Assembly: GCA_963765765.1 (NCBI GenBank)
Contig: CAVXYC010000028.1
Span: 96,001-160,000 of the forward strand
DNA: 64,000 nucleotides
Source of the DNA: an uncultured Chloroflexia bacterium
GTDB taxonomy: Bacteria > Chloroflexota > UBA6077 > JACCZL01
Direction: 5' to 3'
Shown: positions 32,027 to 38,023 of the stretch, one piece after another
How positions within the stretch are numbered: the stretch's first letter is position 1
How the letters are laid out: every line of letters starts with the position of its first letter
The notes under the pieces: model-generated
The model's input: only the letters and a program-made list of their open reading frames with translations
What the model was told of the DNA's origin: nothing
Database searches by the model: none
Position numbers and translations under genes: made by a program

Positions 32027-32665
32027 ATGAGCATCTCCACGGTGATGGTGGACGCAGTCGATGCGCGTCGCGCACGGTTGTTCGAGCTTGTCGGCGATCA
32101 TCCCGACTTCCGTGTTGTCGGTGAAGCGCGGACCGTGCGCGAAGCCGTCGTGGTTCTGTCGCGCCTCCAGCCAGACTTGATAATCGCCGTCAGCGACACG
32201 CTTGAAGTGGATAGCTGCCCAGGTCCAATGAGCCTCCTGCAAGCCACGGAACATTCCACTTTTATATTCATCGGCGACTGTCCGGTGCCGACCTTCAAGT
32301 ATCTGACCACCAACGTCTTCCTGTTGGACCTTGCCGAATTGAATTCTGCTGTCCCGGGACTGCTCCAACACATCCGTCTGCGCAGTGGAAGCTCGGGCCA
32401 GATTGCGGCCAGGGTTCTGGCCCGAGCGCGATCGTATCGCGCCGCGGGTAGATCAATGCCTTCGCCACGGCAGATGGACGTTCTTCGGTATCTCGCGGAC
32501 GGGCACTCACATCGAGCGATCGCCGATGCCCTCGGTATCTCTCAAGCCACGGTAGATCGGCACGTCGCGGATCTCTACGTGAAGCTGGACGTAGCGTCCC
32601 GCGAACAGGCCATAGCCCGAGCTGCAGAGCTAGCCTGGCTACCGCCGAGGGGGCAGCTAGGCTAG
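32027..32665 (+). CDS. NarL/LuxR-type regulator with a degenerate receiver domain
   Basis: VVGEA...PDLII; HTH SPRQMDVLRYLADG...IADALGISQATVDRHV...KL. Confidence 0.8.
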   Translation: MSISTVMVDAVDARRARLFELVGDHPDFRVVGEARTVREAVVVLSRLQPDLIIAVSDTLEVDSCPGPMSLLQATEHSTFIFIGDCPVPTFKYLTTNVFLLDLAELNSAVPGLLQHIRLRSGSSGQIAARVLARARSYRAAGRSMPSPRQMDVLRYLADGHSHRAIADALGISQATVDRHVADLYVKLDVASREQAIARAAELAWLPPRGQLG

Positions 32666-33002
32666 TTCTAGTCCTTGGCATGGCGCTCGATGGCCGGATC
32701 TGGCGCATATCCGAGACTTCCCCAGAACTCGGGCGCTCCCGGCTCAACTTTGGAGGCCACAATCGTGATGTGCTCTGCCCCGAGGTGGCGCAAGGCAATC
32801 TGCACCGATTGCACCAGCGCGCGAGGTCAGGATCACCGCCTTCCACATTCGCATACCAGCCCGCGCGCGACACACATGTCGCGCGTCCCGGGACAACGGT
32901 AATCCCCGACTGCAGAGGTGCGTCGCCGAGATTCGTACCGCCGGCGAGCTGAAACGCCTCGCCGGGTTGCGGACAATGCGGTCGGGCAGAGGGGAGTTCA
33001 GA

Positions 33003-34055
33003 GTGACGACAGTGATGCGAGTGAGCGATGTTGGCGATCTGGTCCAGGAATGGGTCAACGAGCACGGCCAGCATCTTCCCGGATTCCGCGGAGCGTATCT
33101 TTTCGGTAGCCTCGCGACGATGCCGGACGAGGCCATGTTCGCTACGTATCGCGACGTCGATCTCATTGTGGTGCTCGACTCGGGGACCAAGCAGACTGAC
33201 GACAACCTCGAAATGCCCTACAAAGGCCTCATGCTCGAGGTCGGCTTCATCGGCCTCGACGAGCACCGGGATGCAGAGGCCATTCTCGCTCGGCCGGATC
33301 GCGCCGGGAATCTGGCGCGTACCCGGATTCTCGCCGATCCGATCGGATTCCTCGCGCCGCTCCAACGGGAGGTTGCCCGGCGATATGCCGAGCGGCGGTG
33401 GGTGGAGGCACGCTGCGAAGCCGAGAAGCGAGATGCCCGGAAAGCCCTGGAATCCATGGGCGAGGCGCCCGCCCCGTATCCGCGTTTGTTCGCGCTCGTC
33501 GGCACGATCTTGGGACTGGCCGGGTTGCTGGCCGTGGCCCGCCTCGAGATGCCCACAAGCCGACGCGCGCTCAGCGGGATGCAAAGCGCGCTAGAGTCGG
33601 AAGGACGGCCTGACCTGTACGCCGGGATGCTGGACGTCTGCGGCGTCGCCGACCTCACGTTGCGGGAGGTCCAGGGCTACCACGCCGAGATGCTGCGGGC
33701 GTTCGATCGTGCCGTCGAAGTCAGGCGCACATTTGTCCCGTATAGCTTCAAGGTGCAACCGCATCTTCGCCCGTATGTCGATGAGGCGATCGCCGAGCTG
33801 ATCACCGAGGGACACCATCGTGAGGCCGCGTTCTACCTCACGCTCCCGTACAGCACGGTTAACGCGATTCTCCAGAACGACGCTTCAGAGCAGGAGAAGC
33901 TGGCCTACCAGGTCGGCTTCGACGGCCTCCTAGACGCACTGGACTTGAACCGCCCACGCGACTGGGACGGTCGGCTGCGGCAAGCCCGCACGCTCTTCGC
34001 CGAGTTGACGCGGCTGGCAGATGCCTGCGCGTCCCGGACCAGCGAAAGTCTGTGA
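33003..34055 (+). CDS. Hypothetical protein with an N-terminal pol-beta-type nucleotidyltransferase motif
   Basis: GAYLFGS...DVDLIVV; long ORF with GC3 bias; GGGGAG RBS before the GTG. Confidence 0.7.
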   Translation: MTTVMRVSDVGDLVQEWVNEHGQHLPGFRGAYLFGSLATMPDEAMFATYRDVDLIVVLDSGTKQTDDNLEMPYKGLMLEVGFIGLDEHRDAEAILARPDRAGNLARTRILADPIGFLAPLQREVARRYAERRWVEARCEAEKRDARKALESMGEAPAPYPRLFALVGTILGLAGLLAVARLEMPTSRRALSGMQSALESEGRPDLYAGMLDVCGVADLTLREVQGYHAEMLRAFDRAVEVRRTFVPYSFKVQPHLRPYVDEAIAELITEGHHREAAFYLTLPYSTVNAILQNDASEQEKLAYQVGFDGLLDALDLNRPRDWDGRLRQARTLFAELTRLADACASRTSESL

Positions 34056-34136: not shown

Positions 34137-35099
34137 TCACGCTACTGAGCGAGCCGCCTGCTTTAACAGTCTCGCTTCACGCTTGACTCGCTCCCCCTCC
34201 TGGAGCGTAAACCAGAGGTAGAACGCGAAGTAGCTGCGCCAGCCGGCCCACGAGTCAGCAATCGTGCGGACTTCGGCTTCGCTGGCCAATCGGCCCATGC
34301 CGTACCGCTGACCCACAATGCGGCGAAGACCGCCATCACCAGCGGGAATGACGTCAGGATGACCGATCCCACGCATGAGCACGTATTCGGCCGTCCACCG
34401 GCCGATTCCGGTGAGCAGCTCCAATCGGTCTAGCGCCGCCTGGGCTGGGATGGTGAAAAGCGCGTCGAGATCGAGTCGCCCTTCGACGATCTCATATGCC
34501 AGATTGAGAATGTAGCGCGATTTCTGTCGGCTGAACTGAATCTCAGAAAGCTCGGCTTCAGTGATATCGATCACGCGCTCCGGTGTCGGGAAAAGCATCC
34601 ATGACTCTCCGTCGATCTTGAACGATGTTCCGAAGCGCTCAACGAAGGCCCGCTTGCACTTGGCGGCGAAGATGACGTTGATCTGCTGGCCGATGATGGC
34701 CCAGGTGATCGTCTCAAAGATGTCGGGCAATAGCACTGGACGAACACCGCGGAAGCGCGTCAGCAGCTCCTGTCCAAACTCGTCCTTACGAGGTAGTGAG
34801 TCGAGCAGTGGACTGACGTCAACCGCAGTGGCGAAGACTCGCTGCACGATTGGTCGCATCATGCCTTCCGCGTCCCTTGGAAGCGACTCGCCCTGCAACG
34901 TTACGTACAGATCGGTTGGATTTGCCTCTGTGGATTCCACGCTCATGAGCGCTGGCTTCCCCTCGAGTGCAATGGGACGATGGTACGAGCGCTCGCCGAG
35001 TCGCTCGACGATTCGAGCAGGGGATCCGCGAAGATACCTCAGAGCAAGGTCAAATGAGAATGGTTGAGTTGTCGGGACGGTGAATGAAACAGAGGGCAT
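34137..35099 (-). CDS. alkA: DNA-3-methyladenine glycosylase II (AlkA family)
   Basis: AIIGQQI, FPTPE, HhH LTGIGRWTAEYVLMRG, DVIPAGDGG, WRSY. Confidence 0.92.
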   Translation of the reverse strand: MPSVSFTVPTTQPFSFDLALRYLRGSPARIVERLGERSYHRPIALEGKPALMSVESTEANPTDLYVTLQGESLPRDAEGMMRPIVQRVFATAVDVSPLLDSLPRKDEFGQELLTRFRGVRPVLLPDIFETITWAIIGQQINVIFAAKCKRAFVERFGTSFKIDGESWMLFPTPERVIDITEAELSEIQFSRQKSRYILNLAYEIVEGRLDLDALFTIPAQAALDRLELLTGIGRWTAEYVLMRGIGHPDVIPAGDGGLRRIVGQRYGMGRLASEAEVRTIADSWAGWRSYFAFYLWFTLQEGERVKREARLLKQAARSVA

Positions 35100-35100
35100 A

Positions 35101-35820
35101 TCAGGCAGGACGACAGAGTTTACACGCGCGGTATCCCGCGGCCACAGCCGCGGCAGGCGTCGGAAAGGTCACCTCATTCCCACGCTTGACGCGCTTCCCG
35201 GCGTAGCAGAACGGCAGACAGAAGATACGCGTTGAGATACAGGCGTTGAAGCGCATTCCCTGCCTTGCGTTTCGAGCAAGCTGGTCCACGTCTACACCCT
35301 CGTGGGCCAGTATTTCTCGCTTCTTCTCCACTCCGCCCGCACCGTAGTTCACCAACGTGTAGTCAGTACGGACGGCACGATGGCATGGCACCAGCACCGG
35401 AATCGGATTGGTTGCCATGGCATCGCCCACTGCCCGCGCGGCGAGAGGGGCGCCGATTGCTCTGGCAATCCAGGAGTAGGAGCGAATCTCCCCACGGCGC
35501 ACTGCCATGACTTCGCGGAGCGCCTTTTGCTGGAGAGGCGAGACTGTGCTGAGATCGACCGCGCCTCTGAACCGTCCTTTGCCATTCAAGAAGTCTTTGA
35601 CGGATCGAGAAAGCGGAGCTGGCACGTCGTCCGATTGGGTCGGCCGTTGTCCCAGGAAACCTTCACATTTCTCTTCGAAGACTTCGTACTCGACGTCGAG
35701 GTCCGAAAATCGGACCGTTCGCCCTGAATACGCGACCCAGAGACGTCCATAAGTCGAATCAAAGGGTGTGTAATTGAGGCAATCGTAGGATCGCGAGGCG
35801 CGTTTACTTCGAGCTGTCAT
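35101..35820 (-). CDS. Methylated-DNA-protein-cysteine methyltransferase with a C-terminal Ada Zn-binding domain
   Basis: SYSWIA...ARAVG...NPIPVLVPCHR; C-terminal IFCLPFC...GYRACKLCRP. Confidence 0.9.
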   Translation of the reverse strand: MTARSKRASRSYDCLNYTPFDSTYGRLWVAYSGRTVRFSDLDVEYEVFEEKCEGFLGQRPTQSDDVPAPLSRSVKDFLNGKGRFRGAVDLSTVSPLQQKALREVMAVRRGEIRSYSWIARAIGAPLAARAVGDAMATNPIPVLVPCHRAVRTDYTLVNYGAGGVEKKREILAHEGVDVDQLARNARQGMRFNACISTRIFCLPFCYAGKRVKRGNEVTFPTPAAAVAAGYRACKLCRPA

Positions 35821-35884
35821 CGGAATCCCCCAAAGCAACTTGTATCGCCCTCCGCCGGCCATCCGTAGAGCTCCGGCACTCTCC

Positions 35885-36784
35885 CTACACCGCCACCGCC
35901 AGAGGTCGGCAGTGTTTACACGGCCGATATCCGGCGGCGCTCGCGGCGCGCTCGTTTTCAAACGGAACTTGATGATTGGCCTGGATTCGACGCGCATCTC
36001 GGCAGGTTGGATAGCAATAGATATGCGTCGTATCGCTTCCAAGGTATCTGACGCGACGATGCGCCAGCTCGTCAATGGCATCGGGGGAGGCACCTTCTCG
36101 CTGGAGCAGTGCGCGCTTGACGCCGCTGCCATAGGCGTAGTTTCCGACCCCGCCAGTAGAGGGGACAACACGATGGCAGGGCAGGATCAGCGGTACGGGA
36201 TTGCGATTCATGATATTTCCCACGGCCCGCACCGCGCGCGGACTGCCTGCTTCAGCGGCTAGCCACGCGTACGGCCTGACTTCTCCCACAGGAATCGTCC
36301 TCATTTTCTCTAACACCGATCGCTCAAACATTGGCAAGCCATCGAGGTCCACGGGCACGTCCTTTGACCAGCGTCCCTCAGCGGCTTCCTTCACGGCATG
36401 GCCGAGCCTGGGCGGCACATCGGCCAGCGTGGCTTCGCGTCCGAGCCGGCGTCGGTATGCTGCCTGCGCATCCATTGGCTGGGCCGGCAGGAGCGAGACA
36501 AATGTCAAACCTCGCTCGTTGAAACCTACCCACACCTGGCCCAACACAGTTTCAACGGCACCGATCCGATCGCCCAGCGCGGTGATCACCGCACGACAGA
36601 TTGAGGCCGGAGCTGACGAAACATGCTTCAAGAGCGAGCCCGACATGCGCTTCAGCTCATCAAGCTCCGCACGACAGCTCTGGCAGCTAGCGATGTGATG
36701 CTCGATTGCGTGCTGCTCACTGGTAGTCAGCTCAGATGTCCGGAAAGCATCGAGCAATACGGCGATCTGTTCACACTTCAACAC
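35885..36784 (-). CDS. zf-HC2 anti-sigma domain + O6-alkylguanine methyltransferase + Ada Zn-binding domain fusion
   Basis: N-terminal CEQIAVLL...HIASCQSC; middle RAVG...NPVPLILPCHRVV; C-terminal IYCYPTC...GYRPCKHCRP; start overlaps the sigma stop. Confidence 0.9.
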   Translation of the reverse strand: MLKCEQIAVLLDAFRTSELTTSEQHAIEHHIASCQSCRAELDELKRMSGSLLKHVSSAPASICRAVITALGDRIGAVETVLGQVWVGFNERGLTFVSLLPAQPMDAQAAYRRRLGREATLADVPPRLGHAVKEAAEGRWSKDVPVDLDGLPMFERSVLEKMRTIPVGEVRPYAWLAAEAGSPRAVRAVGNIMNRNPVPLILPCHRVVPSTGGVGNYAYGSGVKRALLQREGASPDAIDELAHRRVRYLGSDTTHIYCYPTCRDARRIQANHQVPFENERAASAAGYRPCKHCRPLAVAV

Positions 36785-37334
36785 TCTCGTCCTCCGAACA
36801 AAGCTGTCTCAAACTGGCGAGCGCTCGAAACACCTTCCCGCGGGCAGCCGCCTCGGTTCCACCCTTCACCGCGGCGATCTCCGCATAAGTGAGATCGTGA
36901 ACAAAGCGCAGCTCTAGCCACTCACGAACGGACCAATCCAACCGTTCAAGTCCACGATGCAACTTCTCATCCCCCGCATCCAGCTCTGGTCCTCCATATG
37001 TCGACGGGTCAGCGATTTGATGGCCATCATCGAGAAGATCAGTGATTGGTCGGCTCTTACGGGCCCGCAGGCGGTTGAGCGCGAGGTTTCGGGCGATTCT
37101 CAGAAGCCACGGGCGAACCTGCAACGTCTCAACTTGCTCATCTGTGTACTGCGTACGAACCGCTCGAACGGCTCGAATGAAGGTGTCTTGAGCCACCTCC
37201 TCGGCATCGCGGGAGTCACGAACCATCGAGAGCGCATAGGAATAGATCCCGTTCTGATGGGACACCACCAGTTCTTCGATAGCCCGTTCATCTCCGCGAT
37301 GAACGCCGATGAGCAGGTCTTCTACTACTGTCAT
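36771..37334 (-). CDS. ECF sigma-70 factor
   Basis: Region 2 DAEEVAQDTFI...WLLRIARNLALN; region 4 LTYAEIA...GKVFRALASLR. Confidence 0.92.
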   Translation of the reverse strand: MTVVEDLLIGVHRGDERAIEELVVSHQNGIYSYALSMVRDSRDAEEVAQDTFIRAVRAVRTQYTDEQVETLQVRPWLLRIARNLALNRLRARKSRPITDLLDDGHQIADPSTYGGPELDAGDEKLHRGLERLDWSVREWLELRFVHDLTYAEIAAVKGGTEAAARGKVFRALASLRQLCSEDESVEV

Positions 37335-37438
37335 CGTCGCCAAGCTCACTCCCGTTGCGCGGTCTGCTACGCTCAATAAACACTTAGACATGGCCCCGCG
37401 TTCGTGGCACCAGTCATGGGCGAGCGGCGGAGCACATT

Positions 37439-38023
37439 GTGAGCGATGAAATAGCCGGCGTGCCTATTCTCAATATCATCGGCGCGTCCGTGGCACTGGG
37501 TCCGCTGCGCAGGGATTTACTACCGCACTACGAGCGATGGATGAACGACTTTGAGGTCACCAAGACCCTCAGCGTCGGCTGGCTGGCGATGACTTCCGAG
37601 AGTGAGTCCGCCTGGTATGAGCACGCTTCCCGGGCGTCCGACCAGGTCAGCTTCACGGTCTACGAGCGGCCATCGCTTCGCCCCATCGGCAATGCCGGAC
37701 TTACCGAGATCGACTTCCGCCACGGCACGGCCGAATTCGGAATCATGATTGGTGAGAAGGACTCCTGGGGAAAGGGCTACGGGACGGAAGTGACGCGACT
37801 CGTTGTGGACTACGCGTTCTCGGGGCTGGGCTTACACAACGTCATGCTCCGCTGCTACGCGACAAATGAGGCTGGTATCCGAGCCTATACCAAGGCGGGC
37901 TTCAAGCTAATCGGACGGCGGCGCGAGTCTCGCCGCCGTGGCGGTGGCTACGTCGACACCATCCTCATGGATTGCCTGGCATCAGATATTGAGCCAACGC
38001 TACTCAGGAACATGCTCGATTAA
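37439..38023 (+). CDS. GNAT N-acetyltransferase (RimJ/RimL/SpeG-like)
   Basis: AEFGIMIGEK...WGKGYG, N..GIRAYTKAGF. Confidence 0.88.
   Translation: MSDEIAGVPILNIIGASVALGPLRRDLLPHYERWMNDFEVTKTLSVGWLAMTSESESAWYEHASRASDQVSFTVYERPSLRPIGNAGLTEIDFRHGTAEFGIMIGEKDSWGKGYGTEVTRLVVDYAFSGLGLHNVMLRCYATNEAGIRAYTKAGFKLIGRRRESRRRGGGYVDTILMDCLASDIEPTLLRNMLD

Follow-up and report, generated by a model that had tools for sequence, protein, structure and literature searches.

What does the gene of a DNA alkyltransferase do directly behind, and overlapping with, the gene of an extracytoplasmic function (ECF) sigma factor? The question is raised by a locus in a 64,000-nucleotide stretch of the genome of an uncultured Chloroflexia bacterium from soil (contig CAVXYC010000028.1, positions 96,001 to 160,000; the whole stretch is called the window below, and positions follow its own numbering), where the minus strand between 34137 and 37404 carries a tight operon of four genes. 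These encode the sigma factor, a fusion of a putative anti-sigma domain with an MGMT domain and an Ada-type zinc domain (henceforth the fusion), a second protein with MGMT and Ada_Zn_binding domains, and an AlkA-like glycosylase. We think it moderately probable that the locus encodes an alkylation-damage switch, in which an ECF sigma factor is paired with a soluble anti-sigma factor doubling as a suicide protein of DNA-alkylation repair, such that using up a single-use repair enzyme would probably switch on more repair genes.

The first component is readily assigned. The sigma protein matches Sigma70_r2 (E 3.5e-14) and Sigma70_r4_2 (E 2.2e-8) in Pfam and the sigma70-ECF superfamily in NCBIfam (68.1 bits against a cut-off of 42.9), no NCBIfam equivalog being reached in that scan, and among solved structures it is nearest to AlgU (2.7e-15) and Escherichia coli RpoE (1.7e-10). 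The fusion was modelled with AlphaFold2 from 73 sequences (predicted local distance difference test, pLDDT, 92.7; predicted template modelling score, pTM, 0.74), and the model consists of four N-terminal helices followed by two MGMT subdomains and a small zinc domain. The N-terminal helices span residues 4-15, 21-33, 35-52 and 60-70, the last one extending over 60-74 when residues 1-75 are modelled by themselves (pLDDT 92), and the region contains C4, H30, C34 and C37 in the arrangement C-x25-H-x3-C-x2-C, the latter three being invariant and C4 at least 90% conserved among the 73 sequences. Pfam zf-HC2 matches residues 4-38 just above threshold (24.3 bits against a cut-off of 22.2, E 3.4e-5), a profile of 52 N-termini compared with the PDB sequences finds RsiW (4.3e-5), RslA (0.0038) and DdvA (0.011), and a structure search of 48,161 chains with the model of residues 1-75 returns as its best four RsiW (Z 7.4), MucA (6.2), RslA (6.2) and RskA (6.1), in each case from a structure solved in complex with an ECF sigma factor. 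Likewise, the ten best rows of a Foldseek search of the PDB with the N-terminal model are all anti-sigma chains (RslA, RskA, MucA, ChrR), with weak E-values. Since Pfam, profile and fold matches agree, we can conclude that sequence and predicted fold identify the N-terminus as a class I anti-sigma domain, and as such it would be expected to bind the sigma factor encoded in front of it.

The remainder of the fusion belongs to two well-known families of alkyl acceptors. DNA_binding_1 matches residues 153-232 (E 1.1e-27) and Ada_Zn_binding residues 247-294 (E 3.8e-10; 40.1 bits against a cut-off of 23, with nothing aligned to the first 17 positions of the profile), and the NCBIfam matches to Ada and Ogt begin at residue 79 or 114. 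The MGMT domain aligns to human AGT (1eh6, E 2.1e-19), and Y172, R186, N195, C203, H204, R205 and E230 are invariant in the same 73 sequences; of these we take Y172, R186, N195 and E230 to correspond in role to the tyrosine, the arginine finger, the asparagine hinge and the glutamate of human AGT. The four cysteines of the zinc domain, C257, C261, C289 and C292, are invariant as well, and residues 251-294 align to residues 32-74 of E. coli N-Ada (1adn, E 1.6e-5), by which C257 falls in register with the methyl acceptor, Cys38. By sequence, both suicide acceptor sites of the fusion are thus predicted to be intact. The initial annotation of the locus had read the four genes in the same order, with the start of the fusion gene overlapping the sigma stop, a reversed order of the Ada domains and a soluble anti-sigma domain in the fusion, and in all of this it is borne out: the open reading frames (ORFs) and Pfam give the same operon, the overlap amounts to 14 nucleotides, MGMT precedes Ada_Zn, all three Pfam families that it had named (zf-HC2, DNA_binding_1 and Ada_Zn_binding) match the fusion, and the anti-sigma domain is found alike by the zf-HC2 cut-off, the RsiW profile match and the four best folds.

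The pairing of the two proteins is not confined to this genome. At E<=1e-3 the fusion has 1349 homologues, and the best 120 of these, 214-316 residues long, all contain PF01035 and PF02805 (120/120); most have about 295 residues and a query coverage of 96-100%, three are shorter forms with 72-77% coverage, and the nearest relative comes from a Chloroflexota metagenome-assembled genome. When one genome per species was scanned (266 relatives), 80 loci could be kept for counts, spanning Chloroflexota, Acidobacteriota (mostly Thermoanaerobaculia), Gemmatimonadota, Latescibacterota, Zixibacteria, Dormibacterota, Methylomirabilota and Actinomycetota. In 78 of them the ORF immediately in front is that of an ECF sigma, and in the remaining two a contig end leaves at most ~220 nucleotides of upstream DNA; in most loci with a long, window-like partner even the 14-nucleotide overlap geometry is repeated. 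As judged from these genomic neighbourhoods, the arrangement of sigma and fusion is far beyond chance. The acceptor sites travel with it, PCHR being present in 80/80 loci and the Ada Cys4 site in 79/80, with a contig end accounting for the one miss. The rest of the operon is less constant: whereas the sigma/fusion pair recurs, the second MGMT and AlkA genes are joined to it in just this genome and a single Chloroflexota relative, and no third conserved neighbour gene was found across the loci, the larger clusters reducing to shadow ORFs antisense to the fusion gene or to synteny at the level of clades.

The pair probably also controls its own transcription. An ECF-type promoter is predicted in front of the sigma gene, its -10 element being extended as GTGTTTAT to position 37376, and the motif CGAAC-N16-GTGTT is found upstream of the sigma gene in 41/45 loci from several phyla as compared with 0/45 control stretches. 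The promoter can also be read as CGAACG-N15-GTGTT, and the flanking positions outside the search pattern are nearly invariant too. Loci with short partners carry a related motif, GCAAC-N15-18-G[TG]GTT, in 17/19 cases as against 1/19 controls. Elsewhere in the genome of the window the CGAAC motif precedes the gene of a lone Ogt of 177 residues (PF01035, 1.2e-27), where it lies at C21:38676-38714, 17 nucleotides before the ATG and just past a terminator-like hairpin, and that of a PF09859 'Oxygenase-NA' protein (7.8e-77; site at C15:116245-116206), a family described in Pfam as acting on damaged DNA. A relative whose fusion shares 68% identity with that of the window has the motif before the sigma gene and before the orthologous oxygenase gene (4.3e-112), with a diverged spacer.

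Pairing and a self-directed promoter would, however, fit any anti-sigma mechanism, and the fusion might be released without alkyl transfer, by non-covalent titration on damaged DNA or by regulated proteolysis in response to some other cue, and merely co-express repair. This explanation could also draw on the fact that the motif-linked genes in three other genomes, encoding a DUF4440 protein, a DUF1203 protein, an S-adenosylmethionine (SAM) methyltransferase and a MOSC protein, are not alkylation-repair genes. It is nevertheless unlikely, since the acceptor cysteines and the MGMT catalytic residues are invariant across phyla, which would be needless in a domain serving for DNA binding or carried as cargo, and since loss of the cysteine is evidently tolerated when catalysis is not needed, as in an alkyltransferase-like variant elsewhere in the same genome that has PAHR for PCHR. 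That variant, the fourth MGMT-domain gene of the genome (C27:131776-132015, or ~1423-1740 on the minus strand of locus L086) and devoid of the acceptor cysteine, lies directly upstream of an ORF of 299 residues (L086:531-1430, minus strand) that looks by eye like a glycosylase of the Fpg/Nei type, with an MPELPDV start and a Cys-rich C-terminus.

The anti-sigma domain itself could likewise be the sensor, in the manner of RsrA, with thiol oxidants or electrophiles attacking its Zn-Cys site, zinc being lost and the sigma released, and the MGMT and Ada-Zn domains being cargo. The window fusion has the full C-x25-H-x3-C-x2-C motif and weak NCBIfam matches to RsrA (0.0042) and ChrR (0.0021), and a passage of PMC7406223 has soluble zinc anti-sigma factors as being often redox sensors. 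Across the loci, however, the partners come in three forms. The zinc motif is complete in 47/80 (long forms of the window type), 13 long forms keep the same helices but have lost the zinc ligands, and 19 short forms of about 265 residues, including those of cultured Pseudonocardia strains (L062, L069), keep only the last anti-sigma helix. In a quick maximum-likelihood tree the long-form sigmas group together (support 97), those with zinc-less partners lying inside this clade, and the short-form sigmas form a clade of their own (support 97), the sister relation of the latter to the long-form clade being left undecided by the tree. Given that PCHR and the Ada Cys4 site are retained in all but one locus while the zinc motif is complete in little more than half, and that the zinc-less long forms are nested, the constant feature of these proteins is, as far as their sequences tell, the alkyl acceptors and not the zinc site. 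An RsrA-like thiol sensor is disfavoured as the general mechanism for this reason; the regulon genes found here moreover belong to alkylation repair and not to thiol homeostasis, and we consider this explanation very unlikely. In one close clade of the Latescibacterota/Gemmatimonadota type (loci L014-L030, L038 and L071) the anti-sigma zinc ligands have been lost piecemeal, neighbours such as L020, L021 and L039 keeping all four, which constitutes a natural experiment on whether zinc matters.

There is similarly little chance that the partner does not regulate the sigma factor at all, which would then be controlled elsewhere, e.g. at its transcription, with the MGMT-Ada fusion as the main target gene in the operon: ECF122 and ECF203 are described without an anti-sigma factor in the pertinent parts of the literature (Casas-Pastor et al. 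2021 supplement; PMC8999054) and the short forms are devoid of most of the anti-sigma domain, but the window fusion has a class I anti-sigma domain by Pfam, profile and fold, there is a conserved translational overlap between its gene and that of the sigma, and an autoregulated sigma without an inhibitor would be locked on.

We therefore return to alkylation of the fusion as the signal. The cysteines of MGMT and N-Ada are irreversible alkyl acceptors, methylation of Cys38 in N-Ada is a regulatory switch in E. coli, and alkylated human AGT is destabilized and then degraded. It seems reasonably likely, from the sequences at hand, that the sigma stays bound to the suicide alkyl acceptor until alkylation frees it. 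In the resting state the anti-sigma domain would keep the sigma from RNA polymerase. Upon damage, an alkyl group would be moved from O6-alkylguanine onto Cys203 and/or from a methylphosphotriester onto Cys257, and this irreversible alkylation would change or destabilize the fusion so as to free the sigma, which would then transcribe its own operon, i.e. sigma, new anti-sigma, the second acceptor protein and AlkA, together with the distant ogt and oxygenase genes. The second acceptor protein, Ogt and AlkA would clear the lesions, and once these are gone fresh, unalkylated fusion, made one-to-one with the sigma, would end the response. On a slight balance of probability the fusion may accordingly be a stoichiometric damage counter, in which each repaired lesion irreversibly consumes one anti-sigma and frees one sigma. 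As ECF122 partners are reported without Ada_Zn in the passages that deal with them (PMC7826278), the MGMT site alone may suffice as the trigger. Furthermore, since only the pair of sigma and fusion is conserved, the general circuit would be that of a single-use enzyme reporting its own consumption, and it resembles a suicide enzyme replenishing itself more than a repair operon being induced; AlkA, the second acceptor and the distant genes are what this lineage has added to the pair.

Several observations weigh against the proposed switch. Structural similarity of the N-terminus to anti-sigma factors is moderate, with Z scores of 6-7.4 that small helical bundles often reach, and the Foldseek search of the PDB gave no match to the N-terminal model at E<=1e-3. 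The short forms are without anti-sigma helices 1-3 and yet still paired with a sigma factor, for which reason the binding mode may not be canonical. The data single out neither C203 nor C257, if either, as the trigger. As for the regulon, CGAAC-N15-17-GTGTT has 29 matches in the 6.49-Mb genome where ~29 are expected by an estimate from base composition, and in the relatives there is no motif enrichment either, forward and backward-control counts being alike; because the genome-wide count is close to the chance number, the regulon rests on which genes follow the sites and not on enrichment, and if 29 sites were placed at random, roughly ~0.003 of them would be expected in the 120 nucleotides upstream of any of ten such genes. 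Finally, in the three other, more distant genomes the sigma gene has the motif in front of it, but no ogt or alkA gene follows any of its copies, so that an induced repair regulon is no general property of the module.

Some further genes preceded by the motif should also be mentioned. A class I SAM methyltransferase of ~270 residues is found behind CGAAC-N16-GTGTT both in the genome of the window (C18:30217-30255; L090:767-1582) and in a Thermoanaerobaculia genome (L092:666-1493), and the two proteins, which may be regulon members or chance finds, share 29% identity over 230 residues (E 6e-18); with just this degree of identity between two genomes the gene was not counted as part of the regulon. 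Nor was that of a DinB_2-superfamily protein in the genome of the window (C1:367121-367159; L091:1303-1692), where the motif lies as far as 142 nucleotides upstream. Good copies of the motif furthermore precede the gene of a MOSC_N+MOSC protein in a Gemmatimonadota genome (L093:1538-2392) and, in a Thermoanaerobaculia genome, those of DUF4440/SnoaL-like and DUF1203 proteins (L098 and L107). MOSC proteins detoxify N-hydroxylated base analogues, and in view of the MOSC link the regulon may reach beyond alkylation.

Features of the sigma/alkyltransferase operon, in window positions
Feature	Positions	Strand	Details and basis
Predicted ECF-type operon promoter	37376..37404	-	-35 CGAAC 37404-37400, 16-nt spacer, -10 GTGTT 37383-37379
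ECF sigma factor gene	36771..37334	-	187 aa from ATG 37334; Sigma70_r2 + Sigma70_r4_2
Putative anti-sigma/alkyltransferase fusion gene	35885..36784	-	299 aa, GTG start; Pfam, NCBIfam, AlphaFold2
Predicted class I (zinc-type) anti-sigma domain	36575..36784	-	residues 1-70; zf-HC2, profile search, structure search
MGMT N-terminal (ribonuclease-like) domain	36380..36571	-	residues ~72-135; secondary structure of model
MGMT catalytic/DNA-binding domain, P202-C203-H204-R205	36089..36328	-	PF01035
Ada-type Cys4 zinc domain, C257, C261, C289, C292	35903..36046	-	PF02805
Second MGMT + Ada-Zn gene, without anti-sigma domain	35101..35819	-	239 aa; PCHR + Cys4
AlkA-like 3-methyladenine DNA glycosylase gene	34137..35099	-	320 aa; HhH-GPD

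As for the limits of the individual genes, the sigma gene starts at the ATG given in the table, where the initial annotation had put it, or alternatively at GTG 37349, since the ORF of 206 residues from ATG 37391 begins inside the predicted promoter spacer. The second MGMT gene follows that of the fusion after a gap of 65 nucleotides and most likely starts at ATG 35819, with GGGGGA 7 nucleotides upstream, and not at 36171 as in the mechanical ORF list; the start of the AlkA-like gene lies 1 nucleotide past its stop. The second MGMT protein matches DNA_binding_1 (2.5e-25) and Ada_Zn_binding (1.2e-9) in Pfam, which finds no zf-HC2 in it, and is nearer to the short-form partners (phmmer E down to 5.6e-54) than to the fusion. 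The AlkA-like protein matches HhH-GPD (1e-16) in Pfam, and its best NCBIfam match is PRK10308, DNA-3-methyladenine glycosylase 2 (2.8e-27, residues 6-299), below the equivalog cut-off.

The operon is flanked upstream by a divergent GNAT acetyltransferase gene (37439-38023, plus strand; Acetyltransf_3, E 7.3e-24), whose start and the -35 element of the sigma promoter are only 35 nucleotides apart; in the closest relative the upstream DNA looks similar, which suggests conserved synteny. On the other side, convergent with alkA, there is an ORF of 362 residues (32967-34055, plus strand) with a sub-threshold match to NTase-conflict (E 0.0088, 16 bits against 24), and beyond it the gene of a GerE/LuxR-type HTH (helix-turn-helix) protein of 212 residues (32027-32665, plus strand).

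How much of this is known already? The association of an ECF sigma factor with a methyltransferase has been catalogued: ECF122 and ECF203, both 100% Actinobacteria, have an O6-methylguanine methyltransferase at +1 and, in the wording of the relevant entries, 'no putative anti-sigma factor', and Ada_Zn_binding accompanies the methyltransferase of ECF203 (PMC7826278). In the portion of a 2022 review that treats it, ECF122 is listed under unknown mechanism (PMC8999054). The sigma-MGMT adjacency is thus known in print, as far as these passages go, for the actinobacterial ECF122 and ECF203 only. No experimental study of a sigma/alkyltransferase anti-sigma system was found in the literature within open-licence PMC papers and bioRxiv, nor, in the parts of it that the searches returned, a description of the anti-sigma/MGMT fusion, of its spread outside Actinobacteria or of the CGAAC-N16-GTGTT promoter. 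The initial annotation had known of no experimental description of the design, and within this scope that stands, whereas the gene adjacency that underlies it is not new.

Among the signalling devices of bacteria, ECF sigma/anti-sigma pairs rank third in abundance, and they are known to respond to envelope stress, redox state, light, metals and proteolysis. If the proposed switch is real, irreversible alkyl transfer from DNA would be a new class of ECF input, and the first whose signal is a covalent group moved from damaged DNA onto the anti-sigma factor. It would amount to a non-Ada adaptive response to alkylation across at least eight bacterial phyla, and would show by what means bacteria that lack an AraC-type Ada, here Chloroflexota, Acidobacteriota, Gemmatimonadota, Latescibacterota and others, achieve such a response. 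The 'orphan' sigmas of ECF122 and ECF203 would be accounted for as well, the MGMT neighbour being the missing regulator, and as a compact module of one promoter and two proteins the system could act as a specific alkylation biosensor.

Among known systems, the module is like ECF122 and ECF203 in having an MGMT gene at +1 of the sigma gene. By the descriptions given of those groups it is nonetheless set apart from them, since the window partner has a full anti-sigma domain and the host is not actinobacterial, and in the quick tree the window sigma belongs to another clade than the short-form sigmas, part of which are actinobacterial. The promoter likewise differs, being CGAAC/GTGTT here as opposed to the CTCAC (-35) and CGTCTAC (-10) predicted for ECF122 in the corresponding entry (PMC7826278).

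Closer to the anti-sigma side of the fusion are RsiW/SigW, RslA/SigL, RsrA/SigR and ChrR/SigE, which share with it the H-x3-C-x2-C motif with an upstream cysteine, the four-helix domain and the overlap with the sigma gene, and the fusion is soluble like RsrA and ChrR. It differs in the sensor part, which consists of DNA-alkyl acceptor domains, where RsiW and RslA have membrane or extracytoplasmic parts, ChrR a cupin and RsrA the zinc site, and unlike in the known zinc-type anti-sigma factors the zinc ligands are dispensable in relatives of the fusion. In human MGMT/AGT, alkylation of the active-site cysteine destabilizes the protein, and this would be a plausible route to loss of the anti-sigma factor; however, alkylation of the human enzyme just degrades the spent protein and no transcription factor is released.

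The closest parallel in logic is the Ada adaptive response of E. coli (Ada, AlkA, AlkB, AidB), which likewise combines a Cys4 methylphosphotriester-acceptor module with a PCHR alkyltransferase and, as found here, is encoded with alkA, and in which, as proposed here, a protein that alkylates itself irreversibly thereby switches on its own gene along with further repair genes. The initial annotation had remarked on the lack of an AraC HTH, and indeed Pfam finds no AraC/HTH domain in either Ada-Zn protein of the operon. As the sole two Ada_Zn domains of the whole genome, which has four MGMT domains, both belong to this operon, there is no AraC-type Ada in the genome. The window fusion is accordingly without the output domain of E. 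coli Ada, and it has the order anti-sigma domain, MGMT, Zn domain instead of Zn domain, HTH, MGMT, scoring 95.8 bits with the NCBIfam Ada equivalog NF011964 against a cut-off of 345. Whereas methylated Ada binds its promoters, the proposed output here would be release of an ECF sigma factor, and the system would in this way combine two known kinds, the ECF/anti-sigma switch and the Ada-type suicide sensor.

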